Assembly (NCBI GenBank): GCA_003150515.1
Contig: QALW01000010.1
Span: 15,894-79,893 of the forward strand
DNA: 64,000 nucleotides
Source: Selenomonadales bacterium
Lineage (GTDB): Bacteria > Bacillota > Clostridia > Christensenellales > QALW01
Direction: 5' to 3'
In this document: in pieces, positions 2,964-57,780 of the stretch
Layout: each line of letters begins with the position of its first letter
Position numbering within the stretch: position 1 is the first letter of the stretch
The notes under the pieces: model-generated
Told to the model about the DNA's origin: nothing
Database searches by the model: none
What the model saw: only the letters and a program-made list of their open reading frames with translations
Translations under genes and position numbers: made by a program

Positions 2964-3101
2964 GAAAATAATGAGCGGGGCTTAGCAGGGGGGGCGGCTC
3001 TTGCGGCCGTAAACGGCCGCCCGGCCGCGCCTGCGGCGCGGCCAGGGCAAGCCGCAGGCTTGCCAAGAGCCGCCCCCCGCTAAGCCCCGCTCATTATTTT
3101 C
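2964..3101. repeat. NP2: nested palindrome, about 38-bp outer stem (2-nt bulge) enclosing three hairpins
   Basis: Outer arms gaaaataatgagcggggcttagc...ggcggctcttg / caagagccgcc...gctaagccccgctcattattttc. Inner hairpins at 3004-3019, 3023-3043 and 3046-3064. Confidence 0.9.
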
Positions 3102-10490: not shown

Positions 10491-10910
10491 ATGACTCCGT
10501 ATAAGCTTGAAATAGTTACGCCCGAGCGTACATTTTATAAAGGTATGTGTGAATCCATAGTGCTGGATACCGGTTCAGGCAAAATGGGAGTGTTATACGG
10601 GCATGTGCCGGTAGTGGTTTCTCTGCCTCCTGGAGAAATGGTTATAAAAATGGACGGCGAGGATAAGGTGGCGGTCTGCTCGGGCGGATTTATGGAGATG
10701 CTGGGAAAGAGAGCGTATATTTTTGCCCAGAGCATAGAATGGCTGGAGGAGATTGACGTTCAGCGTGCCATGGAGGCGGCTCGGCGGGCGCGGCGCAAGC
10801 TGGAAGCGGCCAGTAATAAATACGACCGTCAGCGCTTTATATGGGCGCTTGAGAGAGCGGAAACCAGGCTGAAAGCTATTGAGAAAAAACAGCGTGATAT
10901 TACAAAATGA
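10491..10910 (+). CDS. atpC: F0F1 ATP synthase subunit epsilon
   Basis: 139 aa. Beta-sandwich plus helical C-terminus. Last gene of the operon. Confidence 0.9.
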   Translation: MTPYKLEIVTPERTFYKGMCESIVLDTGSGKMGVLYGHVPVVVSLPPGEMVIKMDGEDKVAVCSGGFMEMLGKRAYIFAQSIEWLEEIDVQRAMEAARRARRKLEAASNKYDRQRFIWALERAETRLKAIEKKQRDITK

Positions 10911-10913
10911 TGG

Positions 10914-11178
10914 CTGCGCCCAGCCTTTAGGCTGGGCGCAAAGTCTCAGGGTTTTACGGAAAGCAAAGCTTTCCGTAAAACCCTGAGACTTTGCGTTTTT
11001 TGGCGCCGAAGGCGCCAAAAAACGCAGCCGTTTATTTTACTGGATAAAGGCTTATATGGTTTGGGCCCTGCCTCAGCTTTGCTGAGGCAGGGCCCAAGTG
11101 TCTCCATGTTTAATGGAAAGCTTTGCTTTCCATTAAACATGGAGACACTTGGGGTTGGCTCCCAAAGGGAGCCAACCC
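10914..11178. repeat. NP3: array of six perfect hairpins (two three-hairpin modules)
   Basis: Hairpins at 10914-10939, 10940-10991, 10992-11024, 11061-11095, 11096-11148 and 11150-11178. Stems 11-25 bp; loops ttta/aaa/gaa/ttt/ttt/aaa. Confidence 0.9.
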
Positions 11179-11293
11179 CAAATATTTCATTATTCAATAG
11201 TTGAAATAATAAAAAGGCGGAAATTGTTAAATCAATCTATATTTTTATTTAAGGAGTAATCAAACGAAGATGAAAGAAAATAGTGTATCAAAT

Positions 11294-12001
11294 TTACTTT
11301 GAGCCCTTGCTTCCGTTACATTTACTACATAGAACACGCAAATTTGAAGGAATACTTTTTCCACCTTTGGAGATTGGAATAATATGATCTATATGTAATC
11401 CAACTTCATCTGGCATATATTTTTTGCAAATCTGGCATGTATAGTGATCTCGTTCCATAATTTTTTTTCGCAAGGAAGGAGTCATGAGTTTTCGTTGACT
11501 TTTACTGTTATAATTTCTTAATGTTGTTTCAAAACCGATTTTTTCAAGCTGCTTATGACGATTATCCATCCATTGCCAATTTACTGCCCATTCAGAGACG
11601 ATAACAGATACTTTGTACGCCGTTTTTATATAATTTCTTTGTTGATAACGAGTTTGTTTTCTAATAACCTTAAAATGGAATGCTAGTTTATCATCTAGAA
11701 TGTTTTGGTATTGTTGCGCGCGATATTTCTTTAATCTACAAGCTTGAATATAGTTTTCGGTTTCTTTTTTCCACTCATCAATCTTTTGTTGATGAGTTTG
11801 TATCATTTTCCAGTTCTGTTCGTCTCGAAGAAAATTATCAATATAATCTTCTATTTTAACACTTCGTTTGCCCGTTATATCAAATGAATGAGTAAAATAT
11901 GGGTAATGAAATGGATTTCGTAAAATTCGGCATGTGAGATATATCAATATACACAATACTGAAAAAATAACTACTATTAATAACCATGCGTTTTCAAACA
12001 C
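11294..12001 (-). CDS. membrane-anchored HNH endonuclease domain protein
   Basis: N-terminal TM helix (AWLLIVVIFSVLCILIYL). C-terminal HNH motif CQICKK...HIDHIIPISKGG...NLRVLCSKCNGSKG. GTG start 6 nt after AAGGAGG. Confidence 0.75.
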   Translation of the reverse strand: MFENAWLLIVVIFSVLCILIYLTCRILRNPFHYPYFTHSFDITGKRSVKIEDYIDNFLRDEQNWKMIQTHQQKIDEWKKETENYIQACRLKKYRAQQYQNILDDKLAFHFKVIRKQTRYQQRNYIKTAYKVSVIVSEWAVNWQWMDNRHKQLEKIGFETTLRNYNSKSQRKLMTPSLRKKIMERDHYTCQICKKYMPDEVGLHIDHIIPISKGGKSIPSNLRVLCSKCNGSKGSK

Positions 12002-12182
12002 AGGATACCTCCTTCGTTAAGCTAGGGTTTATTAAATAAAATTGTATAATGCGGAGTAAAACGTAATAGTGTATTTACTACTGCGATACAATATAATTAT
12101 TTGTTTTCATTCGCAAATACATATATTATCTGGTAAACATGTTATAGGGCATCTGTGTTTATCGTATTAGTTGAAGGATATT

Positions 12183-12222
12183 ATTAAAAACCACACTTTG
12201 ACCAATAGACAAAAGTGTGGTT
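12183..12222 (-). terminator. rho-independent terminator downstream of tRNA-Met
   Basis: 11-bp stem aaccacacttt/aaagtgtggtt followed by a T-run on the minus strand. Confidence 0.7.
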
Positions 12223-12227
12223 CTTAA

Positions 12228-12304
12228 TGGTAGCGGCGAGTGGATTCGAACCACCGACCTGTCGGGTATGAACCGAATGCTCTGGCCATCTGAGCTACAC
12301 CGCC
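12228..12304 (-). tRNA. tRNA with CAU anticodon (elongator Met or lysidine-Ile2; not distinguishable by eye)
   Basis: 77 nt. Hand-folded cloverleaf: acceptor GGCGGUG/CGCCGCU, UAGCUCAG D-arm, anticodon loop UUCAUAC, GGUUCGAAUCC T-arm, encoded CCA. Confidence 0.85.
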
Positions 12305-12399
12305 ACATATCAGTATTACGGATTATAGCTTAAACCTGGGCAGTTGTCAAGCATTTATTAATCATATATAATGTCCATTGGATTTAGTTTTGACGGACT

Positions 12400-12518
12400 G
12401 CTTGGTGCCGCCGGCTGCAGCCGGCGGCGCCAAATGACACCCCCTTATCCGGAAAGCAAAGCTTTCCGGATAAGGGGGTGTCATTTGGCTCTGGCGCATT
12501 AATGCGCCAGAGCCAAGC
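12400..12518. repeat. NP4: three-hairpin module with a weak 6-bp closing stem
   Basis: Hairpins at 12402-12433 (one G-T pair), 12432-12486 (26-bp stem, apex ggaaagc aaa gctttcc) and 12487-12514. gcttgg/ccaagc closes the module. Confidence 0.85.
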
Positions 12519-12526
12519 TTTAGCAT

Positions 12527-12718
12527 TTAATCCATTTCATCTTCAATAATATCGTTCAAATGGATAGGATCAATACCGCCGTAGAAATTGCATTTGTCAA
12601 TAATTCTTTGTACTTTGTCAGAATCATGGGATAATAGTTTATACACGTCACCGCACCTTATTCCATACATGGCTCCAACACCTTCTACAGGGACTTCGAA
12701 AATTTCGCATTCGTACAT
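12527..12718 (-). CDS. small conserved hypothetical protein, paralogue A (63 aa)
   Basis: MYECEIFE...YGIRCG...KCNFYGGIDPIHLNDIIEDE. AGGAGG lies 7 nt before the ATG. One of four paralogues in the window. Confidence 0.8.
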   Translation of the reverse strand: MYECEIFEVPVEGVGAMYGIRCGDVYKLLSHDSDKVQRIIDKCNFYGGIDPIHLNDIIEDEMD

Positions 12719-12760
12719 AATGAACCTCCTTATTAATTGGTTAAATATTTCTTTTTCTAC

Positions 12761-12803
12761 AATATATCATAAACCGAAAAAATTATCAAGTATTTTTTGG
12801 AAA
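12761..12803 (-). promoter_or_regulatory. sigma-A-type promoter of paralogue A plus upstream TTTCCAAAA box
   Basis: In gene sense: TTGATA, 17 nt, TGaTATATTGTA. A CCAAA box lies 7 nt upstream of the -35. Confidence 0.65.
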
Positions 12804-12959
12804 TTAAGTATAATAATTTTTAATAGCATATTTTATTTCATTAAAAATACAAAATTAGACATGTAAGAATAAATTACTTGCATAACATAATATATAGAGC
12901 GCATAATAGGCTATTATTTATTAAATGTTTGATTACAATTTTTAACTATTTGTAAAATT

Positions 12960-13005
12960 TATAAAATAAGATACAAGGCAGGAGAAAAATATTCTGCCTG
13001 CCTTG
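12960..13005 (-). terminator. terminator of paralogue B
   Basis: 9-bp stem caaggcagg/cctgccttg followed by T-rich sequence on the minus strand. Confidence 0.6.
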
Positions 13006-13057
13006 CTTCTATATTGCGCTGTTTTGTTATGTACCTTTGCTGTGAACTGATCAGAAA

Positions 13058-13255
13058 TTAACCTTGCCATAATTCATCTTCAATAATGTCACCCAGATGA
13101 ATTGGATCTATGCCGCCATATTCGTTGCATTTATCAGAAATTCTTTTGACATTGTCCAGATTATCTGATACCAGCGCTTTAACTCTGCCACATTTAATAC
13201 CATACATGGTCCCTTTTCCTGGAACAGTTGTCTCAAATATTTCGCATTTATACAC
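13058..13255 (-). CDS. small conserved hypothetical protein, paralogue B (65 aa)
   Basis: Start moved to the GTG 8 nt after AAGGAGG, giving MYKCEIFE... in register with paralogues A and D. YGIKCG, KCNEYGGIDPIHLGDIIEDE. Confidence 0.8.
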   Translation of the reverse strand: MYKCEIFETTVPGKGTMYGIKCGRVKALVSDNLDNVKRISDKCNEYGGIDPIHLGDIIEDELWQG

Positions 13256-13298
13256 CCTGTCCACCTCCTTCTTACTAATAAATCACCTACTTTTTTAC

Positions 13299-13342
13299 AA
13301 TATACCATATTTATCAGTATTAGGCAAGCGGTTTTTGGTAAT
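13299..13342 (-). promoter_or_regulatory. promoter of paralogue B plus TTACCAAAA box
   Basis: In gene sense: TTGCCT, 17 nt, TGgTATATTGTA. Box lies 8 nt upstream of the -35. Confidence 0.65.
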
Positions 13343-13414
13343 TTTTATAATTATTTATAAATATTTAATGTGTATTATTTCAAATAGTTACTTATTGATA
13401 AAAAATATGTAATA

Positions 13415-13516
13415 TGCTCTGGCTCTTGTAGGCCAGAGCATAGTCTCAATGTTAAACTGAAAGCATAGCTTTCAGTTTAACATTGAGACTTAGCGCCCAG
13501 CCAAAGGCTGGGCGCT
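13415..13516. repeat. NP5: three-hairpin module
   Basis: Hairpins at 13415-13440 (tgctctggc/gccagagca), 13442-13490 (23-bp stem, apex gaaagc ata gctttc) and 13492-13516 (agcgcccagcc aaa ggctgggcgct). Confidence 0.9.
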
Positions 13517-13531
13517 GCCTTAAAAATGTTT

Positions 13532-13723
13532 TTATTTAATTTGGGCGTCATCGATAATATCTCTCAGGTGTATCGGATCTATACCATATTTGTTGCATTT
13601 GTTTGTTAGTTTCTGAACTTTGACAAAGTTGCGGGAGATAAGCTGATGAGTTTCACCGCATTTAATTCCATAGACAATTTCTCCGTTTTGGTTTTTCTCT
13701 TCATAGACTTCGCATTTAAACAT
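13532..13723 (-). CDS. small conserved hypothetical protein, paralogue C (63 aa)
   Basis: Start moved to the ATG giving MFKCEVYEE..., by homology. YGIKCG, KCNKYGIDPIHLRDIIDD. Confidence 0.75.
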   Translation of the reverse strand: MFKCEVYEEKNQNGEIVYGIKCGETHQLISRNFVKVQKLTNKCNKYGIDPIHLRDIIDDAQIK

Positions 13724-13762
13724 TGCTCCATTGCTCCTTAACAAAAGAAGATATTTTTTTAT

Positions 13763-13803
13763 AATATATCACATTTAAGAACAGAATGCAATTATTTTGG
13801 TAA
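13763..13803 (-). promoter_or_regulatory. promoter of paralogue C plus TTACCAAAA box
   Basis: In gene sense: TTGCAT, 17 nt, TGaTATATTATA. Box lies 5 nt upstream of the -35. Confidence 0.65.
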
Positions 13804-13937
13804 TTTTTATTGTTAAAATTTTTCAAATTATAAACTGAAATATTTTCATAATTTTAAATAAGTATTATATATGTTGTATATATAAGGACAGATTGTTTAA
13901 TTAATAAATGACCTATTTTTTATTAGAGAATTATTTT

Positions 13938-14072
13938 ACTGGGGGGCGGCGCGAGCCCGGCCTGCGGCCGGGCTCAGCGGAGCACAGATATGGGAAAGCG
14001 CAGCTTTCCCATATCTGTGCTCCGCCAGCGCATGGCGCCTTAATGGCGCCATGCGCTGCGCCGCCCCCCAGT
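13938..14072. repeat. NP6: 14-15-bp outer stem enclosing three hairpins (four-way junction)
   Basis: Outer arms actggggggcggcg/cgccgccccccagt. Inner hairpins at 13953-13975, 13977-14025 (apex gggaaagc gca gctttccc) and 14026-14058. Confidence 0.9.
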
Positions 14073-14128
14073 ATTGCTTACTTTATCTTTTCTTAAATCG
14101 GCCGTTATAATTTAGTGCGTACATATTA

Positions 14129-14923
14129 TTAAGGATGGTCGTTGATTTGATTTTTTTCCAGCCAGCGTCTGGGAGAAAGCCCCGTGCGCTTTTTGAATAC
14201 TCTGGAAAAATAATAATAATCATGAAATCCCGCCTGCCGGGAAATTTCTTTTATGGTTATGCTTGTTTCCCTGCTTGTGCGCAGTAATTGCAGGGCGAAG
14301 GCTACGCGTTTTTTTGTTAAAAACTGTACTGGCGTGTCTCCAGTGGATTTTTTAAAGAGCCTGCGAAAATAATCGTTGTTCAGCGCAAAGCGTCCGGCCA
14401 TGTGTTCAGTGTTAAAGTCGGGATTGGATATATTCGCTATAATTTCTTTTACGGCCGAGGATACATACGGATTATATGCGGTTTCATTCATAAATGAAAT
14501 GATATATTGGTTTAATGCGTCAAATAAACAATTCACAATATTTTCCCAGTTTTTTCGCTTTAGGTGGTATTCCCAATACATTTGACGCAATATATTCAGA
14601 AAATCTTCACCGTCGCTGTCATGCAGCAGAAGATGCGAGCTTCCCGCTATGGGAAATTCGTGAAATGTGTAGTGATAGTTTTTAAAGCCTGTGTCTGAAT
14701 AATCAGTATGCGGAGTTTCAGGCGCTATTAAAAAAATATCTCCCTTTTTAAAGGGATATCTGCGTCCGTCTATTTCCACAATGCCCGAGCCGTCGGTATA
14801 ATATACCCCTTCCCATAATTCGTGCGTATGTACCTTAACGCGGTATGTGCTGTTAAAAAGCCGCCCTACATATTTAGGCCCGGCGCTTCGGGCATAGCGC
14901 TCCGTATGCTTGTTCTGTTCCAT
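14129..14923 (-). CDS. AraC family transcriptional regulator (cupin sensor plus HTH)
   Basis: 264 aa. C-terminal AraC-type double HTH (ISRQAGFHDYYYFSRVFKKRTGLSPRRW). Divergent from the sugar operon. Confidence 0.85.
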   Translation of the reverse strand: MEQNKHTERYARSAGPKYVGRLFNSTYRVKVHTHELWEGVYYTDGSGIVEIDGRRYPFKKGDIFLIAPETPHTDYSDTGFKNYHYTFHEFPIAGSSHLLLHDSDGEDFLNILRQMYWEYHLKRKNWENIVNCLFDALNQYIISFMNETAYNPYVSSAVKEIIANISNPDFNTEHMAGRFALNNDYFRRLFKKSTGDTPVQFLTKKRVAFALQLLRTSRETSITIKEISRQAGFHDYYYFSRVFKKRTGLSPRRWLEKNQINDHP

Positions 14924-15482: not shown

Positions 15483-16685
15483 ATGAATAAAAAACAGGAT
15501 TTAATTAAAGAACATTTGGAGAAGAGCGGAGGTATATTGAATTTAATCCCGGTATTTGTTCCGCGCCGGTTCGGATCGGCCGGACATCGGCTTAAGTTGC
15601 ATCCGGACGATTATTACGCTTTGGGCACAAAGCGCGGCTCCATTAAGGAGCGCTGGTTTTCTTCGGTTATCTGCCCTATGAACGGGACGGACGCGGCTGA
15701 GGACGAGGGCCTGAGCTATGTTAATTTAACGGGCAGGCTGGAGGATAAAATTTCTCTCAGGGATTTTGTTAATACTCTTAAAGGCGAGCTGATTGGGAGC
15801 GCGCTGTATGACAAATACGGAAACTGGCCCATGTATTCCAAATTTTTCGACTATGAGGGCCCTTTATTCCATCATCTGCATCTGAGCTTTGAAGCGGCCG
15901 CCAGAGTGGGCAAGCTGGGCAAGCCTGAAGCCTATTATTTTCCTCCTCAGTATAATAATTATATGGGCAAATTCCCTCATACTTATTTTGGATTTGATCC
16001 GGACGTTACCAGAGAGGAAGTGAAAGAACGCCTGAAGGGATATACCGACAGAGACACCCGTATTACCGAATTATCCCGGGCGTATAGGGTTGAGCTGGGC
16101 ACGGGCTGGTATACTCCGCCGGGAGTGGTGCATGCTCCGGGTTCAGTTTTGACCTATGAGCCTCAGTGGAATTCAGACGTCAATTCGGTATATGAGAATA
16201 TCTGCGACAACGAAATATATGATTACAGCTTTTTGGCCGAAAACTGCCCTGAAGATAAATGGCATGATCTGGACTATATTTTAGATTTGCTGGATTGGGA
16301 GAAAAACGTCGATCCCCATTACCGCAAGAGCTATTTCCGCCCGCCCATAACCATTGCGGAAAACGAGCAGTATACTGAAAAATGGATAGCTTACGGCAAT
16401 GATTATATCGCGGCCAAGGAATTAACCGTGCAGCCGGGAGCAAGGGTTATGATTCAGGACAATACTCCATATGGCTGTATAATCGTACAGGGCTATGGCA
16501 AAATAGGCGCTCATAACTGCGCCTGCGCTACTATGCTGCGTTTCGGCCAGCTCAGCCAGGATGAATTTTTTGTTTCCTATGACGCGGCGAAACAGGGCGT
16601 AAGCATAGAAAACCACAGCAGCTGCGAGCCGCTGGTTATGCTTAAGCATTTTCCTAGCAATTCTTTAGTGCCCAGGGCTGAATAA
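15483..16685 (+). CDS. cupin-fold protein, putative sugar isomerase (unassigned)
   Basis: 400 aa from the ATG after GGAAGGAG. First gene of the operon with 3-epimerase, kinase and 4-epimerase. The function is inferred only from context. Confidence 0.45.
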   Translation: MNKKQDLIKEHLEKSGGILNLIPVFVPRRFGSAGHRLKLHPDDYYALGTKRGSIKERWFSSVICPMNGTDAAEDEGLSYVNLTGRLEDKISLRDFVNTLKGELIGSALYDKYGNWPMYSKFFDYEGPLFHHLHLSFEAAARVGKLGKPEAYYFPPQYNNYMGKFPHTYFGFDPDVTREEVKERLKGYTDRDTRITELSRAYRVELGTGWYTPPGVVHAPGSVLTYEPQWNSDVNSVYENICDNEIYDYSFLAENCPEDKWHDLDYILDLLDWEKNVDPHYRKSYFRPPITIAENEQYTEKWIAYGNDYIAAKELTVQPGARVMIQDNTPYGCIIVQGYGKIGAHNCACATMLRFGQLSQDEFFVSYDAAKQGVSIENHSSCEPLVMLKHFPSNSLVPRAE

Positions 16686-19917: not shown

Positions 19918-20102
19918 GGGGCCGGGAAATAAAATTCCAGCCAAGGGGGGCGGCGCGGAGCCCTTCGGGCCGAGCGGAGCCGCCGCGGCGGGCAAGGCAA
20001 GCCTTGCCCGCTCCGCGCCGGCTCCGCTTTATTTCGGCGCGCCCGAAGGGGCGCCGAAATTCCGCGCCGCCCCCCTTGGCTGGAATTTTATTTCCCGGCC
20101 CC
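19918..20102. repeat. NP7: 42-bp perfect outer stem enclosing three inner hairpins (185 bp)
   Basis: Arms 19918-19959 and 20061-20102 are exact reverse complements. Inner structures include gcgggcaaggc aa gccttgcccgc. Lies between convergent genes. Confidence 0.9.
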
Positions 20103-25604: not shown

Positions 25605-25865
25605 TGAGCGCTTGGCGGCGCATGCCCCAGCGAAGCTGGGGCATGCGCCGGGGCGCGGCGTCCGGCAAGCAAATGCTTGCCAAGGCCGAGCTTGCGCTCG
25701 GCCTTCGCGGCCCTGCGGGCCGCGGGACGCCGCGCCCCCCGGCACCTCGTGCCGGTTTGGCGTTTGCGGCCCGCAGGGCCGCCGTCCGGGGCTTTTAGCC
25801 CCGGACGGGCAGGCGCTCAGCGCCTGCCAAACGCCGAATCGGGCATGAGGCGCCAAGCGCCCTCA
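25605..25865. repeat. NP8: seamless series of hairpin, four-way junction, hairpin, four-way junction, closed by a long-range stem
   Basis: 25617-25649 hairpin; 25650-25738 outer stem plus three hairpins; 25739-25755 hairpin; 25756-25838 outer stem plus three hairpins. gcgcttggcg (25608) pairs with cgccaagcgc (25851). Confidence 0.9.
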
Positions 25866-25976
25866 AGGCGCTCAATATTCAAAGCTATTGCCAATCATTA
25901 AGCTGTTTTAAATTTCCGTAGTATGTGTTATAATTAAAATATAAAACAGTAAAGGATAATTTCAAGTCGTATACAA

Positions 25977-27355: not shown

Positions 27356-27517
27356 AAAAGCCAATAAGCATTTATGTTTATGGCGCACGGCCCCGCTAAG
27401 CGGGGCCGTGCGCCGGGGCGCGATGCGCGGCAAGCGAAAGCTTGCCGCTGTTCGAGCCTGCGGCTCGGAACCGGCGGCTTGGCCGCCGGCATCGCGCCTA
27501 GGTGCTTATTGGCTTTT
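27356..27517. repeat. NP9: 15-bp outermost stem enclosing a 15-bp hairpin and a 10-bp stem that closes three hairpins
   Basis: aaaagccaataagca (27356-27370) pairs with tgcttattggctttt (27503-27517). Hairpin at 27382-27414; junction at 27417-27498. Fills the whole convergent intergenic gap. Confidence 0.9.
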
Positions 27518-27710
27518 AATCCTCCAGGAGCTCATCCTCTATGATTTCGCTCAGATGTACGGGATCTATTCCGTATTGATTGCATTTCTGAATGATTTTC
27601 TTTACTTTTTCCAGGCTGAATGAAACCAGCCTGCATTCCTCGCCGCATTTTATGCCGTACATAGTTCCGGCATTAGCAATGGATACTTCATACAGCTCGC
27701 ATTTGTACAT
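27516..27710 (-). CDS. small conserved hypothetical protein, paralogue D (64 aa)
   Basis: MYKCELYEV...YGIKCG...KCNQYGIDPVHLSEIIEDE. GGGAGGA RBS. Confidence 0.8.
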   Translation of the reverse strand: MYKCELYEVSIANAGTMYGIKCGEECRLVSFSLEKVKKIIQKCNQYGIDPVHLSEIIEDELLED

Positions 27711-27984: not shown

Positions 27985-28043
27985 AAACGGGGGCATGCCC
28001 GGTTAATATTATTTAATAATATTAACCGGGCATGCCCCCGTTT
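27985..28043. repeat. NP10: 59-bp perfect palindrome (29-bp arms, 1-nt centre)
   Basis: aaacgggggcatgcccggttaatattatt t aataatattaaccgggcatgcccccgttt. Lies 3' of the GDPD gene. Confidence 0.9.
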
Positions 28044-29638: not shown

Positions 29639-31825
29639 TTATGCTAAAACATCGCTTAAAATTTTCCAACTGTCGCTATTAATATCATCAGAATAAGCAT
29701 CCATACAGATACATAATTCTTCACTCTTGTCATCATAGCAGACGATGCCGCCCTTTAAGCCGTATCGTTCAAGATAATCTTTCAGCACCTTGAATTTCTT
29801 TGGTGTGAAAGTATCAATATCCTGGCTGCTGCCTGAACGGTCAAAGCCGCCCTTTGTCTCGATTATCCAAATTTCATCCTTTACGCCTATGATATAGTCG
29901 GGATAGAAATTCTTTTGCTTCTCGGAATTATCAGCGTACACGATGGACAGGTATTCGTTGCCCTTATCTCCGTTTTTGTAAACCCAATCCACACTATCAG
30001 CCGTTTCACAGTATTTCTCAAACTTGCGCTCTGAAGAAGAACGGATTTCAGCAGAAGAAAGGTAACCGTGATACACGTTCTTTTTCATTTCAAGCTGTGT
30101 CTTCGCCGTGCGGTCATATGTAAACAGGCAGCTTTGCGGGATTCGGAAAGGCACCTTGGATACCGTTTTAATATCCAACTGAAGCTGTGCCAGCTCTGCC
30201 GCCATAGCTTCACGGACGATGTGCTTCAGGCGGTTGGCGTTGTTAATGACAAATGTGTATACCTCTCTTGGCGGGAGAACGAGAATTTTACGGGCATAGA
30301 TGAAATTTTTGTCAAACAACTTGCGGATAATGGTATTCATATAGTTATATTCCATGCCGATTTCCAATCCGATTTTTCCGATGGTATGATGGTACAGATG
30401 TCCGTGCGTGTGCGTATTCAGTTTTTCCACAACATTGACCGTATTCATATCTTCGGGGGAAAAATCAAGCGTAGCTGTTTCTCCCGAATAGGTATGGCGT
30501 ATAATCCCGTCGCTGAAGATAAATCCCGCTGTCTGTAATCGCGTCATATTCTTAGATTTATTGCCGTCCGTTTTGAATTCTTTTTCAAAGTATTCGGCAA
30601 CAGCAAGCAGCGCCTTCTGCGGATTTCGGGTGTTTGTAATCATTGTGCGCTGTTCGCTTGTCAGCGTGATATCCCCGTATTCGTTTTTGAGGAAAAGCGT
30701 CTGTGCTTCTAACGCTCCTTTTCCCAAGCTCATTTTTACGCCTGCCGTGAATTTCTCATCGAAGGTGTAAAGATAGCAGCTGTCAAGCAAATCGCTGCCG
30801 TAATGCTTTGCCTCCGGCATACGGCGGATACGCCCGATAGTCTGAATTTCAAAGGTTTCGTCCATATTGTCACGGAGCTTTACAAGAATATGCGCTCTCG
30901 GACAGTCCCAGCCCGTAGCGACGGCCTGCTTGATGATAACCGCAATGGGTTTAGCATTCGGCTCGTCAATATCCTCCAGATTCTCGTGCATATCGGACAG
31001 CCATATCGCAAGCTGTTTGTTTTCATAAGTAATGCCCTGTTTTTCAAAATAATGTTCGATATCATCCTGCATTTTCTCCGATTTGTTCGGTATCTGCACT
31101 ACAATCAACGGATTAATATCCCTGTCCGCCGCTAGAAAAGCTGAACGCAGAGAGCGCTGTTTGCAGAGAGCTTTTTCAAGCAGATAGGCGTTTTGGTTGT
31201 CAGTTTCAACATTCTGCGGAAAATCCTCGTTAATAACCAGCATTTTTTTGATTAGCCCCTCGGCAATTACATCTTCTTCAGGTATTTCGATGATTTCCGC
31301 ATTTTTAATGCCTTTTGGCGTGGCGGAACAACGGATGATTTTATCCGTGTGGAAATATTGAATAATCTCGTCCGCCTTTACCGTGTTATTTTGGTGGCTC
31401 TCGTCAACGATAACCACAAAGCGCAGGCCGTCGTTCAGGGCGCGGGCAATATGCTCGACAAAATTGGTGCGTTCGCTGTCTTTGAGGGCATTGTTCCCTT
31501 TCTTTGTCAGCTTTTCCCAGTTGATAAAGCAACTATCGTTTTCCTTAAAGCCGCCCGTCATTACATCGGCAAGCAGCTTTGTCTGCGAGGCGTGAATATA
31601 CTTATCCATTTTTGTCTTGCTTTGTTCCTCAAGATTGCCCTTGCCGGGCGTGAGCCAAACGAAAACGGTTTTCCGAAAGCTTTGTATGTACTGGTGCATA
31701 AAATAGGTGAGGATAATGGTCTTTCCGCTGCCCGTGGGACTTTTCAGGATAATGTCCTGTGCTGGAGAGTCCATTGCCTCAAATAAATCCTTTACGGCTT
31801 TAAGCTGAAATTCTTTTAACTGCAT
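29639..31825 (-). CDS. res: Type III restriction enzyme Res subunit (SF2 helicase plus C-terminal PD-(D/E)xK nuclease)
   Basis: Motif I SPTGSGKT, motif II VIVDESH, C-terminal PDYIIGV...IWIIETKG. Lies 2 nt downstream of mod. Confidence 0.85.
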   Translation of the reverse strand: MQLKEFQLKAVKDLFEAMDSPAQDIILKSPTGSGKTIILTYFMHQYIQSFRKTVFVWLTPGKGNLEEQSKTKMDKYIHASQTKLLADVMTGGFKENDSCFINWEKLTKKGNNALKDSERTNFVEHIARALNDGLRFVVIVDESHQNNTVKADEIIQYFHTDKIIRCSATPKGIKNAEIIEIPEEDVIAEGLIKKMLVINEDFPQNVETDNQNAYLLEKALCKQRSLRSAFLAADRDINPLIVVQIPNKSEKMQDDIEHYFEKQGITYENKQLAIWLSDMHENLEDIDEPNAKPIAVIIKQAVATGWDCPRAHILVKLRDNMDETFEIQTIGRIRRMPEAKHYGSDLLDSCYLYTFDEKFTAGVKMSLGKGALEAQTLFLKNEYGDITLTSEQRTMITNTRNPQKALLAVAEYFEKEFKTDGNKSKNMTRLQTAGFIFSDGIIRHTYSGETATLDFSPEDMNTVNVVEKLNTHTHGHLYHHTIGKIGLEIGMEYNYMNTIIRKLFDKNFIYARKILVLPPREVYTFVINNANRLKHIVREAMAAELAQLQLDIKTVSKVPFRIPQSCLFTYDRTAKTQLEMKKNVYHGYLSSAEIRSSSERKFEKYCETADSVDWVYKNGDKGNEYLSIVYADNSEKQKNFYPDYIIGVKDEIWIIETKGGFDRSGSSQDIDTFTPKKFKVLKDYLERYGLKGGIVCYDDKSEELCICMDAYSDDINSDSWKILSDVLA

Positions 31826-31827
31826 AA

Positions 31828-33549
31828 TTATCTCTCCTGTAAATCGCGGTAGTAATAATCGGGAATAGTGCTGATTTCAATGCGGTGTTCCTTTATCGCC
31901 TTTTCCTGTTCCTCATCGGGCAGCAAATCGTATCCCATATACAGCTTTTTACATTTGCTGAAGCCGTCTATATCCCGCATAAAAGCAGATAACTCCTCCT
32001 CCGTGAGCACAATAGCGATTTCTGCATTGCCGGTAAAGTTGATACCGTTTTCAAGCTCAATTAATTCACGGATATGGAGCAAAAGTTCATCGGCGTATTC
32101 GTAGTACATACGCTCGGATATGGGAATATAATCGACTTTGTAATATTTCAGGCTTGCGGCGTAGTCTTCTTTATGGATAACACGTTTAATACGCTCGTAT
32201 GTAACCTCGCGGCAGATATTGTTTTCGTTGTTGGCGCAGAGGATAAACCGGCGGTTTCCTCCGTCCTCGGCGTTCAGCTTCATTACGGCGTGTCCCGTTG
32301 TGCCGGAGCCTGCGAAGAAGTCCAATACCGTGGCATCTGCATTCTCGGAAGCAACTTGAATCGAGTCAACAACTGCATGAATTGACTTTGGATAATCAAA
32401 TTTCTTTTTGCCTATAATATCAGAAAGAACATTGGCTCCAAATGTTGAAGCAGAATATTCTGGCTTATCCCAAAAGGTGTACGGTTGCATTTTTTCTGAT
32501 TTCATACGGCCTTTGTAGTATACAGAGGGGTTGCCCGAACGATCTTTTCTTACTCCCAGATTTTTTTCTTTTTCTCTAAGAACAGTTTCTATTGACCATT
32601 TCCACGTTCTTTGTCTGCCCGATTCATCAATAGGCAAAGAAATAATCTCGTCATTTTCCGGTTGCTCCAACAATGTATATTTTTTTGTTTCGTCATCCCA
32701 TTCCATTTGAGGAATTCTAAAATCACTAAAATCTTTTTTCACAAAAATCGGATATACCATTTTAGGCGATTCGGAACTATACTGTGCCCTGAAATTTCTC
32801 CATTCAAATGGGCCGTATTCATCACATTCCTTATACCTGGAAAGTTGATTTTCATTTCTTGCCAATCCGCCGATTTTAGCTTTCGCGCCTCCATAAAACA
32901 ACCCATATTCATGTGAAATCTGAAAACCTGTTACATTTGAGCGCCCCTGCGGATTATTTTTAATTACTACGGTTCCCAAATGATTTTCTTCGCCAAAGAT
33001 TTCATTCATCAAGAGTGTTATATTTTCTATTTCATAATCATCTATTGTTAATACGATAATCCCGGTTTCTTTTAATAGCTCTTTCGCAACATTCAATCGT
33101 GCCTTTATAAATGACAACCATTTTGAATGTCTGAAAGTATCGGTATTATCGACATAATCGTTATTATATCTCCAATTTTTTGCACCTGTATTATATGGTG
33201 GATCTATATAAATAACATCAATTTTGCCTTTATATGTTTTCACCAGCAGCTTCAGCGAAGCCAGATTATCCCCCTCAATGAGAAAATTCATCTGTCCGCC
33301 GTTATCAATAAACAGTTTTTTATCCTCACTCAAAACCGGAGTGTGCGTATCCAGCACCTCGTCGATTTCCTCGCGGTGTTCTTCAAAAATAAGTCCGTAT
33401 TTCTTGCCGTTTATGTCATTTTCAAGCTCGGAAAGATAGGTCAGCAGATTGCCCGTATTTTCGTCCTGCGGCGCAGACGATATATATTTGCGGATTTCCC
33501 CGATTTTCTTTATCAGGTCGTCACGCCTTTGTTTTGAAATGTTCGCCAT
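31828..33549 (-). CDS. mod: Type III R-M Mod subunit (beta-class N6-adenine/N4-cytosine DNA methyltransferase)
   Basis: DPPYN (IYIDPPYNTG) precedes the SAM motif FFAGSGTTGHAV. mod-res gene order. Confidence 0.85.
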   Translation of the reverse strand: MANISKQRRDDLIKKIGEIRKYISSAPQDENTGNLLTYLSELENDINGKKYGLIFEEHREEIDEVLDTHTPVLSEDKKLFIDNGGQMNFLIEGDNLASLKLLVKTYKGKIDVIYIDPPYNTGAKNWRYNNDYVDNTDTFRHSKWLSFIKARLNVAKELLKETGIIVLTIDDYEIENITLLMNEIFGEENHLGTVVIKNNPQGRSNVTGFQISHEYGLFYGGAKAKIGGLARNENQLSRYKECDEYGPFEWRNFRAQYSSESPKMVYPIFVKKDFSDFRIPQMEWDDETKKYTLLEQPENDEIISLPIDESGRQRTWKWSIETVLREKEKNLGVRKDRSGNPSVYYKGRMKSEKMQPYTFWDKPEYSASTFGANVLSDIIGKKKFDYPKSIHAVVDSIQVASENADATVLDFFAGSGTTGHAVMKLNAEDGGNRRFILCANNENNICREVTYERIKRVIHKEDYAASLKYYKVDYIPISERMYYEYADELLLHIRELIELENGINFTGNAEIAIVLTEEELSAFMRDIDGFSKCKKLYMGYDLLPDEEQEKAIKEHRIEISTIPDYYYRDLQER

Positions 33550-33610
33550 AATACCCTCCGTTTGATAGGGTGTTCCCGACGATGAATCCCATCGAGTAAG
33601 GAAAGCCCGA

Positions 33611-34531
33611 TTATCCTATAATTTCCCCATATCGGTCAAGCCGTTCGCCTATATATTCCGATATGAGCTTTATCATATTTTCGGCTTTGCCGTCACGGTA
33701 GAAGCTGTCGAAAGCGTCGTAATACCTTTTGCGGTCGGCAAATTTCACATTGATTGCCGGGTAGCCGCTGCGGATAAGCTCTAAATTGAGAATAAGCCTC
33801 CCCGTTCTGCCGTTACCGTCCATAAAGGGGTGGATACCCTCAAATTCCAAATGAAACCGGGCAATGCGCTCTATGGGGTGCATTGTCTTTTTTCTGCGCT
33901 CATTTTCGGCAAGCAGTCCCGTCATCTTGGGCTCAATCAGATATGGCTGCGCCGGCTCGATATATGTCCCCGTAATGTTTACGGGAATACGGCGGTAAAC
34001 GCCCTTATCTTCCGGTCTGTCCATCAGCACAAGCGAGTGAATCGCTTTAATTTCCGTTTCCCGCAGCTTTGTCTTATTCTGCGCAATATCTTCAATATAT
34101 AGAAATGCGTCACGATGTCCCACTGCCTTCAAATGGTCTTTCAGAGGCTTTTTATCGATACTGATGCCCTCCAGCACCATCGCCGTTTCCTTAAGCGTCA
34201 GCGTGTTGCCCTCTATGGCGTTGGAGTTATAGGTGAAGTCCACCATAAATTCGTCGCGCAGCCGCTTTGTTTCCCCTGCGGTAAGCGGGCGCATATTATC
34301 AAGCTTCAGCCTCTTCAAATCAGTATCCCTAAACAGCTTGTAATAATCGCCCCTGCGCTGCTTGTAGGGTAATCTGCGGCGGTCAAGCGGTTTTTCCGTA
34401 TCCGCGGGTATCATATAAAGGTATCCCTTGCGGATAACGCCTTCTATTTCTCCATTTGCGCAAAGCAGGCGGACACGGCGGGAAGAAACGCCCCATTTTT
34501 CCGCTGCCTGCGTTACCGTTAAATAGTCCAT
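33611..34531 (-). CDS. Fic family protein with an N-terminal excisionase/MerR-type HTH
   Basis: Fic motif HPFMDGNGRTGR. N-terminus LTVTQAAEKWGVSSRRVRLLC. Start set at MDYLTV, after AGGAGGG. Confidence 0.85.
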   Translation of the reverse strand: MDYLTVTQAAEKWGVSSRRVRLLCANGEIEGVIRKGYLYMIPADTEKPLDRRRLPYKQRRGDYYKLFRDTDLKRLKLDNMRPLTAGETKRLRDEFMVDFTYNSNAIEGNTLTLKETAMVLEGISIDKKPLKDHLKAVGHRDAFLYIEDIAQNKTKLRETEIKAIHSLVLMDRPEDKGVYRRIPVNITGTYIEPAQPYLIEPKMTGLLAENERRKKTMHPIERIARFHLEFEGIHPFMDGNGRTGRLILNLELIRSGYPAINVKFADRKRYYDAFDSFYRDGKAENMIKLISEYIGERLDRYGEIIG

Positions 34532-34837
34532 TTCAGCCCTCCTGTTCGATGGACATAAAAACACAAAGTAAAGTATAGCACAAATAAGGAATGATTGCAA
34601 GAGATTCAAAAGAGAGTTATAATATGTTTTTTCCGACAATTGAGTTATAAAATCAGACGCTGTGTCCGTGCGGATGCCGCAGCGCAGATCGTATTTATTA
34701 GCTTAGTCGCATAGCGGAGTTCAAGGACGCTAACGAGGAGAAATTTACCCAATTGCTTGCCGCAAAGGCAAAAGCCGATGCCTGAAAGGGAGCTGCTGCG
34801 GAATACTGTCCAAACGGTGTTCCGGCATAAGCGGCAT

Positions 34838-52114: not shown

Positions 52115-52298
52115 ACATGCCCTGACATTCTCAAAACCGTTTTAAGGCGATTACAGGCAAATATCTCTTTAAAGCTTTGAAATGCTGGATTTTACGCCCT
52201 AAAACTATTATTCCCGTTCGTACTGGTTGTCAAACTGCAATCTTTGGAGTAAAATAGCCAAAAGACAGGAATCTTTATGGAAAAGAGGCTTTATGATT

Positions 52299-52751
52299 AT
52301 GAATAAATGGGACGCGCGGTTTATGGAATTGGCGGAGACCGTGGGCGGATGGTCCAGCTGTTACCGGAGCGGAAGAAAAATAGGAGCGGTAATTGTCCGG
52401 GATAAGCGCATTTTAACTACCGGCTATAACGGCGCGCCCGCCGGACTGCTTTCATGCGCTGAGAGAGGGGAATGCCTCAGAGACCAAATGGGCATACCTT
52501 CAGGCACCCGCCATGAGCTCTGCTATGCCATACATGCCGAGCAGAACGCGCTTATTCAGGCCGCCAAGCTGGGCGTGAGCGTTCAGGGGGCCACCCTTTA
52601 CTGCACTCATCAGCCCTGCACCATATGCACGAAGCTTATTATAAACGCGGGCATAGCGCGTATAGTATATAAATATCCCTATCCGGACGAATTTGCCCAG
52701 GCCCTGCTTAAGCAGGCTGAAGTGCAGGTGGACGTATTTTCAGAGCTATAA
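52299..52751 (+). CDS. dCMP deaminase / ComEB-type cytidine-deoxycytidylate deaminase
   Basis: HAEQNA and PCTICTKLI zinc motifs. Start ambiguous between 52293 and 52299. Confidence 0.85.
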   Translation: MNKWDARFMELAETVGGWSSCYRSGRKIGAVIVRDKRILTTGYNGAPAGLLSCAERGECLRDQMGIPSGTRHELCYAIHAEQNALIQAAKLGVSVQGATLYCTHQPCTICTKLIINAGIARIVYKYPYPDEFAQALLKQAEVQVDVFSEL

Positions 52752-52812: not shown

Positions 52813-52858
52813 TTGTTTTTATGAAAAATTAATCTGCGCTTTAAAGGGGGCAAAGGGC

Positions 52859-52945
52859 GGGGCGGCGCTGCGCAGGCGCTTTAGCGCCTGCTGGGGGCGC
52901 GCTTTCAGCGCGCCCCCGCGGCCTTCGGCCGCGCAGCGCCGCCCC
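52859..52945. repeat. NP11: 13-15-bp outer stem enclosing three hairpins (87 bp)
   Basis: ggggcggcgctgcgc / gcgcagcgccgcccc. Inner hairpins aggcgc ttta gcgcct, gggggcgcgc tttca gcgcgccccc and gcggcc ttc ggccgc. Confidence 0.9.
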
Positions 52946-53387
52946 GTGATTTTGTTCAGAAGCGAGCCTGAATCTTTCCGCCGTTTTAATTCTGGCAATC
53001 CAAGAGCTTCTACGCTCTAATGCGGCGGGCCGTAACCCCCCTTGGCGCCGGGGCTCTGAATAATTTTAACTGTTTATTTTTTCCGGGTTGATATTGACAT
53101 AGCGTTATATATATGCGATAATTAATACGAGGGATAAAGCGAGCAGAAATGAGCTGAGTTTTTTCATCAGGATCTATCTCCTTAATTTAGTTTTCAATTC
53201 CGGACATTTTACGAGGGGCGCTTATTCAGCGCTTACAGCACCATTGGATTCACCTCCTCGCCTCTGACCATACGCTTTTTTTAAACGGCGATATTTTTTC
53301 CTTTATTGATAGGCAGGGCGCTACTAATTGGATAGTGGCAATAAAAATCAGAAATTCGTAAAAGATGTAGGAAAGGAGAGAAGGATA

Positions 53388-54272: not shown

Positions 54273-54303
54273 AAAGGGAAAGCTGTTTTTCAGCTTTCCC
54301 TTT
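54273..54303. terminator. NP12: bidirectional terminator-like perfect hairpin with GGGAAAGC/GCTTTCCC arms
   Basis: aaagggaaagctg ttttt cagctttcccttt, between convergent genes. A-tract and T-tract flanks. Confidence 0.8.
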
Positions 54304-57636: not shown

Positions 57637-57780
57637 TTTGCCGCAATAAAAAGAATCAACGCCGCGGCGCCGGCCGCTTTGCGGGCCTCCGGCCCGCCGG
57701 GGCCCCTCCGGGGCCCTGCCCCCGCGCGCGGGGGCAAGCGGCCGGCCCCGCGGCGTTGATTCTTTATTATTGCGGCAAAA
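57637..57780. repeat. NP13: about 31-bp outer stem (1-nt bulge), 11-bp second stem and three inner hairpins (144 bp)
   Basis: tttgccgcaataaaaagaatcaacgccgcgg pairs with ccgcggcgttgattctttattattgcggcaaa. Inner structures gccggccgctt/aagcggccggc, gcgggcc tcc ggcccgc, gggcccc tcc ggggccc and tgcccccgcgcgcgggggca. Confidence 0.9.

Follow-up and report, generated by a model that had tools for sequence, protein, structure and literature searches.

Perfect three-hairpin cloverleafs behind the genes of a gut Christensenellales bacterium

Why should the same hairpins recur, in changing company, at unrelated loci of one bacterial chromosome? The question is raised by a 64,000-nucleotide stretch of contig QALW01000010.1 of a Selenomonadales bacterium (positions 15,894 to 79,893 of the forward strand), which we call the window, and most pressingly by the hairpins at its positions 10,914 to 14,072, the focal region. 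We found that these hairpins belong to a set of 11 clusters in the window, built from a unit that we call the cloverleaf: a closing stem round exactly three abutting hairpins, the whole being a fully paired four-way junction. On balance, and with some reserve, we favour the view that the cloverleafs are a palindromic family in terminator position, kept perfect and flipped by template switching at replication, and selected for their fold and for a few motifs. The census covers about 64 kb of the genome together with the flanks of its relatives.

The cloverleaf unit

Twenty-two clusters, from the window and three related contigs, were folded with G-U pairs forbidden and their helices drawn as trees. 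Exactly three branches leave 15 of the 16 multiloops, and the hairpins of a unit abut with 0-2 unpaired nucleotides between them. Some units sit on the apex of another hairpin, which gives tree-like structures. Among 1202 predicted pairs, 829 are G-C, 362 A-T and 11 G-T, that is, about 99% Watson-Crick. Loops of 3 nt make up 49 of 70 (70%), and reverse-complement loop types are equally frequent (TGC 6 and GCA 5, AAA 6 and TTT 6, TTC 6 and GAA 5). By contrast, rRNA hairpins have 3-nt loops in 3.5% and 4-nt loops in 56% of cases (PMC8794818), and perfect inverted repeats after the stop codons of bacteria generally have mostly 4-5-nt spacers (PMC13155455). Folding energies lie at z = -13.6 to -16.9 relative to shuffled sequences, whether computed as DNA or as RNA.

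The unit comes in two forms that share a G-rich outer stem (GGGGCGGC); outer stems measure 6-16 bp, or 42 bp where they are counted together with a host stem. In the first, the long-centre form, a central hairpin of 23-29 bp with a GGAAAGC tip stands between two GC hairpins, whose own tips are typically CAGC(C)-N3-(G)GCTG and GGCGCC-N3-5-GGCGCC. The second is a GC-rich cloverleaf of 80-100 nt, consisting of the outer stem, a GCGGCC hairpin, a variable hairpin and a GGCA(A/G)GC hairpin. All five units of the focal region are of the long-centre form:

Cluster 1, 10912-11029: directly 3' of the atpC stop codon; outer stem GGCTGC/GCAGCC round three abutting perfect hairpins, 10915-10940 (GCGCCCAGCC, loop TTTA), 10937-10995 (28 bp, tip GGAAAGC-AAA-GCTTTCC) and 10992-11026 (GCGTTTTTTGGCGCC, loop GAA); DNA fold -65.5 kcal/mol, z = -13.6.
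Cluster 2, 11061-11181: tandem paralogue of cluster 1; hairpins 11061-11097 (tip CAGC-TTT-GCTG), 11093-11153 (29 bp, tip GGAAAGC-TTT-GCTTTCC) and 11149-11181, the third with loop AAA or TTT depending on the strain.
Cluster 3, 12400-12518: 8 nt 3' of the DUF6514 gene 12527-12718 (minus strand); outer stem GCTTGG/CCAAGC; hairpins 12407-12428, 12429-12489 (29 bp, GGAAAGC tip) and 12485-12516 (GCTCTGGCGCA, loop TTAA).
Cluster 4, 13413-13516: 15 nt 3' of the DUF6514 gene 13532-13744 (minus strand); inverted counterpart of cluster 1; hairpins 13413-13442 (GCTCTGGC), 13442-13490 (23 bp, tip GAAAGC-ATA-GCTTTC) and 13492-13516 (GCGCCCAGCC, loop AAA).
Cluster 5, 13937-14073: 3' of the AraC-family gene 14129-14923 (minus strand); 16-bp outer stem TACTGGGGGGCGGCGC; hairpins 13953-13975, 13977-14025 (23 bp, tip GGGAAAGC-GCA) and 14026-14058 (tip GGCGCC-TTAAT-GGCGCC); DNA fold -86.5 kcal/mol, z = -16.9.

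The hairpins listed in the original prediction are all present, at most about 2 nt from where it placed them, and each is a perfect palindrome. The GCGCCCAGCC core recurs at 10915-10940 and 13492-13516 with its different loops, the GCTCTGGC arms at 12485-12516 and 13413-13442. The five long central hairpins (10937-10995, 11093-11153, 12429-12489, 13442-13490 and 13977-14025; stems of 23-29 bp) have AGTCTCA/AGTGTCTC bases and GAAAGC tips in common. The tip GAAAGC-N3-GCTTTC was exact at five of the six places proposed for it (10959, 11116, 12452, 13459 and 13994), but at 54277 only a looser variant, GGGAAAGC-TGTTTTTCA-GCTTTCCC, lies within an ordinary T-tract terminator. Likewise, GGCAAGC tips were recovered at 3046, 25664 and 27429, whereas 19991 carries a GGCAAGG variant, and at 1221 the base of a 17-bp hairpin merely resembles the motif. 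The proposed apex rule, AGC-N3/4-GCT or GCC-N3-GGC, describes 35 of the 70 apexes and leaves the rest outside; a broader rule, a 5'-C...G-3' closing pair (53/70) with a 3-nt loop (49/70), fits better. What the original prediction missed is the three-hairpin and nested organisation, along with the clusters at 2964-3101, 19918-20102, 25608-25860, 27356-27517, 52858-52946 and 57651-57764.

This recurrence is far above chance. The window holds five GAAAGC-N3-GCTTTC tips (0.00 in 100 shuffles), two GGCGCC-N3-5-GGCGCC tips (0.07 expected) and four GCGGCC-N3-6-GGCCGC tips (0.10 expected), and GGCA(A/G)GC tips are likewise far over expectation. Perfect hairpins in the window number 45 with stems of at least 8 bp, 25 with at least 10 bp and 14 with at least 14 bp, compared with 8.3, 0.65 and 0 in first-order Markov simulations.

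Mirrored changes and flips between strains and species

We compared the clusters with contigs of same-species strains from independent metagenomes, cited here, like the other comparison sequences, by L numbers. They were located by protein look-ups, which place these loci in 170-625 blocks of the collection. The comparison takes in every cluster except 52858-52946, whose neighbouring deaminase open reading frame (ORF) matched no contigs in the collection. Of 7541 sites outside the clusters, 69 (0.9%) distinguish strain L028 from the window. Inside them, its 10 differing bases resolve into two loop flips (AAA/TTT) and two mirrored pairs, at 13456/13476 in cluster 4 and 13986/14016 in cluster 5, with no uncompensated change; the loop flip of cluster 4 lies at 13503-13505. 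Two or more mirrored pairs would arise by chance with a Poisson P of about 2e-5. In L163, the central hairpin of cluster 2 carries a mirrored A>G/T>C change and a loop flip together. Other loops are flipped in L014 (GAA>TTC, within 25608-25860), L018 (TTA/TAA) and L026, L027 and L028 (AAA/TTT).

Inversion also affects whole interiors. The cloverleaf at 2989-3078 exists as three haplotypes, each seen in at least two samples; in one of them two loops are flipped, and in another the order of the three hairpins is reversed. A whole interior is inverted in L034/L037 compared with the window. In a related species, L001 and L005 are 99.5% identical and differ in one loop (ATACG/CGTAT), and in L006 the entire cloverleaf interior is inverted relative to both. 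These polymorphisms bear on the suggestion that hairpins are reassorted between loci: modules do recur, but much of the apparent reassortment is better accounted for by entire interiors and individual loops having been inverted, both kinds of inversion being polymorphic between strains, and deletion or fusion of similar hairpins covers more of it.

The between-species comparison rests on three species, namely that of the window, L002, and the group L001/L005/L006, which are pairwise about equidistant at some 84% nucleotide identity in atpD-atpC. The AtpC encoded in the window shares 91% identity with its counterparts in Candidatus Neochristensenella gallicola and in the uncultured Clostridiales metagenome-assembled genome UMGS1037. 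The window belongs to the core chromosome and contains dnaB, the atp operon, tgt, yajC, rny, metK, groEL and radA. Orthologous clusters occur in all three species, and the five focal clusters are all at equivalent places in L005. Every arm substitution between species is mirrored on the partner arm, and the arms checked are exact reverse complements within their own genome, bar one G-T. The orthologues of cluster 1 in L002, L001, L005 and L006 bear mirrored substitutions, that of cluster 3 in L005 has five mirrored changes in the central stem, and cluster 4 differs from its L005 orthologue by a mirrored 5-nt block (TTAAA vs GCTGT). For these counts we relied on orthologous arms and strain alignments, since covariation counts on a MAFFT alignment of the paralogous cloverleafs are noisy in the variable middle hairpin.

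Other parts of the clusters did not change. At four-fold sites of atpC, 34 of 59 differ between the window and L005, so that synonymous sites are near saturation, and in the same comparison the central arm of cluster 2 is unchanged at 26 of 26 positions. The GCGCCCAGCC core is identical in five lineages. That some hairpins remain unchanged despite such divergence speaks for a constraint acting on the sequence and not only on the fold.

Twelve GC-rich cloverleafs from unrelated loci in three species can be aligned (alignment A1), with a mean column identity of 57%; their GCGGCC and GGCA(A/G)GC arms are nearly invariant, and the G-rich outer stem is common to them. Homologues of the cloverleaf at 2989-3078 occur twice in L002 and once in L001. 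Local paralogues include clusters 1 and 2 as well as the clusters on either side of the tandem DUF6514 genes. The long-centre unit is also present, at another locus, in the more distant lineage L025. In the outgroup relatives L003, L009 and L011 (57-65% AtpC identity) the terminators are plain and perfect hairpins few. The hairpins form one homologous, lineage-specific family that is vertically inherited and locally duplicated, and at least once a member was copied into the apex of a hairpin already in place. Common descent, which the original prediction had offered in place of independently evolved terminators, is upheld by the alignment of the 12 cloverleafs and by the loci shared among three species, even though the clusters do hold terminator positions.

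The near-pure Watson-Crick pairing, the 3-nt loops, the equal loop orientations, the flips and the mirrored changes at about 1% divergence together point to a process at the level of DNA. Template switching is known to homogenise the arms of inverted repeats, to invert spacers and to yield compensatory changes, with or without loop inversion, in a single event (PMC8794818); compensatory changes and loop inversions of this origin are likewise reported in PMC8604942 and PMC13100816. In the family described here, template switching between arms at replication would keep the arms free of errors or substitute both at once, and would leave loops and whole interiors reverse-complemented in different strains. 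Slippage across the junction would remove hairpins. Purifying selection would hold the fold, the position and the motifs, namely the GGAAAGC tip, the AAGTCTC base, GCGCCCAGCC, GCGGCC and GGCA(A/G)GC. The mirrored changes and flips are present in the alignments; the copying mechanism behind them we infer from their pattern.

Several points weigh against this explanation. Very short recombination tracts brought in from diverged alleles could, in principle, also produce mirrored changes, and template switching alone explains neither the three-hairpin rule nor the copying of an 81-nt cloverleaf to a new apex, described below. Uncompensated single-nucleotide changes in stems exist in L012 and L013 (both within 25608-25860) and in L030, which indicates that conversion is not instantaneous. 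Some clusters also have no T tract, with 0-2 T at 19945, 25608 and 27356 among others. Finally, all comparison sequences are short-read metagenome assemblies, palindromes are difficult for assemblers, and it is common for a contig to break off within a hairpin cluster. Set against this last doubt, every haplotype of the 2989-3078 cloverleaf recurs in at least two independent samples.

Two practical effects of the clusters may be added. Contigs L004, L006, L008, L016-L025 and L036-L038 end inside them, and mechanical ORF calls run across them (for example 10593-11018, 13908-14096 and 25677-25901), giving spurious ORFs. The clusters thus break up metagenome assemblies of this clade and are liable to be mis-called as ORFs.

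Gain, loss and role at gene ends

Beyond the focal region, the window contains six further clusters and a single long hairpin:

2964-3101: 11 nt 3' of an aminotransferase gene; GC-rich cloverleaf 2989-3078 (outer stem GGGGGGCGGCTCTT; hairpins GCGGCCG, GGCCGCGCC and GGCAAGCC) on the apex of a 23-bp host stem.
19918-20102: large cloverleaf between convergent aldolase and PG-binding genes; 42-bp perfect outer stem holding the GGGGGGCGGCGC motif; three branches, the middle one with tip GCGGGCAAGG-CAAG-CCTTGCCCGC; invariant in five spanning strain loci (L157-L161), while the L162 contig stops inside the element.
25608-25860: two-level nested element, 18 nt 3' of a GDSL lipase gene; outer stem GCGCTTGGC enclosing hairpin 25616-25650, cloverleaf 25650-25738 and an imperfect long stem with cloverleaf 25759-25835 on its apex; RNA fold z = -16.6.
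27356-27517: nested element between a PGA_cap gene and a convergent DUF6514 gene; AT-rich 15-bp host stem enclosing hairpin 27382-27414 and cloverleaf 27417-27498; identical across 7 strains.
52858-52946: GC-rich cloverleaf 3' of the deaminase gene 52227-52751; outer stem CGGGGCGGCGCTGC and three hairpins; belongs to alignment A1.
57651-57764: 3' of a 667-aa gene and upstream of radA; cloverleaf 57669-57746 (outer stem GCCGGCCGCT and three hairpins) on the apex of a 17-bp host stem; identical in 3 strains.
27985-28043: single 28-bp perfect hairpin with A and T tracts on its flanks; loop TTA or TAA by strain; part of the same perfect-palindrome regime.

Hairpins are both gained and lost. The atpC central hairpin has an 81-nt cloverleaf (ATTGGCGTT...AACGCCAAT) in place of its C-AAA-G apex in L001/L005/L006, with no target duplication. 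Since this apex is intact in both other species, insertion is the parsimonious reading, and a homologue of this cloverleaf stands on an unrelated host stem at 25759-25835 of the window. As for losses, L030 lacks exactly two of the three hairpins of cluster 3 (83 nt) and retains a perfect 16-bp hairpin, L014 lacks 74 nt of cloverleaf within 25608-25860, and cluster 1 is gone from L026, L027 and L163 through fusion of the similar first hairpins of clusters 1 and 2. The element at 27356-27517 is missing in the L022-L024 lineage (78% identity of the PGA_cap protein) and present in L019.

Presence and absence of this kind would also fit non-autonomous transposable elements, comparable to miniature inverted-repeat transposable elements (MITEs), repetitive extragenic palindromes (REPs) and palindrome-associated elements, and moved by an enzyme encoded elsewhere in the genome. 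Such an enzyme would recognise the structure and insert into single-stranded hairpin apexes, with the perfection of the stems reflecting either youth or the chemistry of insertion. The lineage-specific insertion on the atpC apex, the position of the copies, always on apexes of unrelated host stems, and the dispersal of homologous copies with outer stems resembling terminal inverted repeats (GGGGGCGGCTCTT, ATTGGCGTT) over unrelated loci all speak for it. Nevertheless, we regard this explanation as doubtful. Target-site duplications are absent at all the copies inspected (2989, 25759, 57669, atpC of L001/L005/L006, and L002 position 2391), where the flanks are the inverted arms of host stems. 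We found no fixed 5' target motif either, the flanks being GAAAG, GCCGGT, TTAGCAG, AGGGGC, CGGAAC and CGCGGC, and no conserved flanking tetranucleotide: the REP tag GTAG/CGTC lies within 4 nt of the stem end in 3 of 36 cluster hairpins, compared with about 10% of random positions. The 12 aligned copies, drawn from about 64 kb of this genome and the flanks of its relatives, are diverged rather than near-identical, at 57% mean column identity, and orthologous copies outlast saturated synonymous divergence. No transposase is encoded among the Pfam-scanned ORFs of the 64-kb window, and the perfect, symmetric stems have none of the bulges by which HUH transposases and integron integrases pick a strand.

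The cloverleaf could also, though this is less likely than not, be a new, structure-defined kind of mobile or self-propagating DNA, a perfect four-way junction that is copied specifically into hairpin apexes, grows recursively and flips at every level. Copying could then be due to a structure-specific enzyme or to the repair of breaks or stalls at hairpin tips, and the junction itself, rather than its sequence, may be the functional signal of the host at gene ends. A 1-kb HNH cassette can be cited here as another arrival in a hairpin apex of the region. It is a 1050-nt block (11178-12227) with a gene for a 235-aa HNH endonuclease (11294-12001, minus strand) that has an N-terminal hydrophobic segment. 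The block is found in the window and in L029; L026, L027, L028 and L030 have 71 nt instead, and L163 has the intact hairpin. The empty allele is a terminator hairpin downstream of tRNA-Met, AAAAGGCGGA-TTGT-ttta-ACAA-TCCGCCTTTT, and the cassette takes the place of its 5' arm and loop, having thus landed at a hairpin apex too.

The position of the clusters is strict. They are present in 7 of the 28 tandem intergenic regions and in 3 of the 6 convergent ones, and absent from all 6 divergent ones; all 11 lie 3' of genes, 0-106 nt from the stop codon, and those in tandem regions are closer to the upstream 3' end in 7 of 7 cases. A T-rich tail (at least 5 T in the 10 nt past the outer stem) follows 6 of the 11, and a scan with the intrinsic-terminator consensus recovers just portions of clusters 1 and 2. 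A role at transcript 3' ends is favoured by the position, by the T tracts where they occur and by the deep conservation, and the likeliest function suggested by these patterns would be that of transcript 3'-end structures, terminators or stabilisers, working in either orientation. An apparent order of hairpins along the direction of transcription (GGCAAGC hairpin first, 4/4) was dropped, as interiors are inverted between strains and species and family-1 clusters occur in both orientations.

The same position and T-rich tails, together with the simple perfect terminators present in the window at 1221, 29017, 47468 and 54273, could suggest ordinary intrinsic or tandem terminators that evolved independently and share motifs by coincidence in GC-rich stems. 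This we find hardly credible, since the motif statistics already contradict it, as does the family alignment. Motifs recur far over chance, a homologous multi-hairpin architecture is found at unrelated loci, multiloops have three branches in 15 of 16 cases, and many clusters are without a T tract. The outgroups L003, L009 and L011, on the other hand, do have plain terminators.

A perfect four-way junction can be fully paired and coaxially stacked, and a perfect three-way junction cannot. The three-hairpin rule is accordingly best explained, we believe, by the stability of the perfect four-way junction. If such junctions form in DNA, as cruciforms or single-strand cloverleafs, they may be bound by HU, RuvA or a dedicated factor, and the binding may mark replication events, give order to the nucleoid or take up supercoils behind transcription units. 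DNA hairpins are favoured by 3-nt loops with C-G closing pairs, as in GNA mini-hairpins. The loops and closing pairs found here, GAA and GCA included, suit this well; pairing is almost only Watson-Crick and the junctions fully paired, orientation is irrelevant, and the arms, as their frequent flips show, interact as DNA in vivo. A precedent is E. coli REP325, for which, with its RNA, HU and cruciforms, such a DNA-level role has been proposed (PMC4550694). We nevertheless consider a function as DNA unlikely. The protein partners named are candidates, the strict 3'-end placement nearer the upstream gene is what a transcript-level role predicts, and DNA-level signatures can be by-products of mutation.

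The original prediction had also suggested testing the apex palindromes as sites of restriction-modification (R-M) enzymes, nickases or methyltransferases, such as the Type III system at 29639-33549. A Res/Mod pair is indeed encoded in the window, and some apexes hold palindromic hexamers (GGCGCC, TGCGCA). Type III enzymes, however, recognise short asymmetric sites. Moreover, the half-sites are not depleted outside the clusters, where GGCGCC occurs 38 times (42.6 expected), TGCGCA 32 times (29.4 expected) and GAAAGC in 74 copies, and the hexamers that are depleted, CAGCTG and CTGCAG, are not apex motifs. We therefore give this explanation next to no credence. The depletion itself is strong (CAGCTG 5 vs 24.5 expected, CTGCAG 6 vs 18.7, outside clusters) and suggests restriction avoidance unrelated to the apex motifs. 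DNA-uptake sequences were set aside as well, their motifs not being over-represented outside hairpins.

Some neighbouring features may be mentioned. The Type III pair (Res 29639-31825, Mod 31828-33549) adjoins a gene for a Fic/HTH protein (33611-34639) and a tRNA-Leu, and 29639-34639 looks like a small defence island. Four DUF6514 paralogues of 63-70 aa, with matches ranging from weak to significant, lie on the minus strand at 12527-12718, 13058-13264, 13532-13744 and 27516-27710, three of them in tandem within an AT-rich stretch (34% GC). A hairpin cluster abuts the stop codon of three of the four. The middle gene of the tandem, 13058-13264, is followed by only a simple imperfect hairpin (12960-13005, CAAGGCAGG...CCTGCCTTG), whose loop region varies between strains, and by no three-hairpin cluster. 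The 638-aa ORF 6266-8182 matches two ATP synthase subunits, delta (OSCP) in its C-terminal part (residues 14-84) and alpha over its full length, and is either a delta-alpha fusion or an over-extended start overlapping atpH.

Known systems compared

The favoured picture, a terminator-position family shaped by template switching, has to be placed among known repeats. In Rfam searches of the window only two tRNAs reach the gathering threshold, and at permissive E-values just generic long-hairpin (miRNA precursor) models appear, far under threshold. BLAST of cluster queries against plasmids and phages gave no match. Among viral contigs, the 16-mer GGCGGCTCTTGCGGCC had 115 hits, with the partner arm in 0 of 80 fetched loci, which we attribute to chance, and the GCGCCCAGCC hairpin had 0 hits.

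Like the REPs of Enterobacteria and Pseudomonas, including REPINs and GTAG/CGTC-tagged REPs, the cloverleafs are short, GC-rich extragenic palindromes, many per genome and behind genes, and roles in termination, mRNA stability and protein binding have been proposed for REPs (PMC3733652, PMC2817692, PMC3116915). REPs, however, are imperfect palindromes of 20-40 nt with a terminal tetranucleotide, alternating arrays and a RAYT transposase, whereas the cloverleafs have perfect stems, no GTAG/CGTC tag, three-hairpin units and nesting, and no RAYT is found among the Pfam-scanned ORFs of the window. In bacterial interspersed mosaic elements (BIMEs), palindromes alternate at regular spacing with linker motifs; here the hairpins abut inside a closing stem. 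MITEs such as Correia, RUP, BOX and ERIC (PMC3184786, PMC2229807) are similar in being non-coding, about 80-140 bp long, stably folded and often co-transcribed with their neighbours, and in their terminal inverted repeats, which the outer stems resemble (for example GGGGGGCGGCTCTT/AAGAGCCGCCCCCC and ATTGGCGTT/AACGCCAAT). Their target-site duplications and imperfect internal pairing have no counterpart here, and where MITE copies are fairly uniform, the 12 cloverleafs aligned from the DNA covered here average 57% column identity.

Elements derived from IS200/IS605 have a fixed tetra- or pentanucleotide target and asymmetric subterminal hairpins, in contrast to the varied flanks and symmetric hairpins of the cloverleafs. 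Integron attC sites are imperfect, with extrahelical bases, R/L boxes and gene cassettes, whereas the stems here are perfect and without bulges, and the 64-kb window encodes no integrase. The inverted terminal repeat (ITR) of adeno-associated virus is a T-shaped hairpin with flip and flop forms, in which an outer palindrome holds inner palindromes and the interior occurs in two reverse-complement orientations. It has two inner palindromes, lies at the ends of a linear single-stranded DNA genome and flips through Rep-mediated terminal resolution; the cloverleafs have three inner hairpins, internal chromosomal sites flanked by housekeeping genes, no Rep or nick site and no viral matches, and so differ from parvovirus-type ITRs. 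Instability of the adeno-associated virus ITR is discussed in PMC11754738. On these comparisons, the cloverleafs belong to none of the REP, BIME, MITE, IS200/IS605-derived, attC, parvoviral ITR or Rfam families.

A closer parallel in position is TRIT of Mycobacterium (PMC3152330), a lineage-restricted, sequence-conserved, bidirectional palindrome at gene termini without a canonical U tract. TRIT is a single hairpin with one consensus that overlaps stop codons, while the family described here forms nested multi-hairpin four-way junctions with several sub-families and variable stems. By analogy, TRIT is a precedent for a lineage-specific palindromic terminator motif. In mechanism, the parallel lies with template-switch mutations of hairpins, single events that give complementary arms, "instant" compensation and inverted loops (PMC8794818, PMC8604942, PMC13100816). 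They have been described from rRNA, miRNA and yeast genes as sporadic mutations, whereas in the present case a whole repeat family would change mainly in this way.

A closing stem round three hairpins with recursive nesting was not found among described bacterial repeats, Rfam families, plasmids or phages. A whole repeat family of a common human-gut bacterium that appears to be shaped mainly by arm-to-arm copying, visible between strains about 1% apart, would offer an unusually clear natural case for measuring the rates and genetics of template switching, and it raises the question of how transcripts are ended in this clade.

In behaviour, the cloverleafs come closest to the GC clusters, double-hairpin elements and repetitive hairpin elements of mitochondria (PMC4478555, PMC2800124). 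These too are dispersed GC-rich hairpins in AT-richer intergenic DNA, with conserved stems and variable loops, tandem or multiple hairpins, merger and shuffling of modules, presence/absence polymorphism and an unknown mechanism of transposition. They differ in being organellar and, for GC42, in having an AG target duplication, and neither the three-hairpin unit nor nesting on apexes is described there; the cloverleafs, in turn, sit in a bacterial chromosome, at terminator positions.

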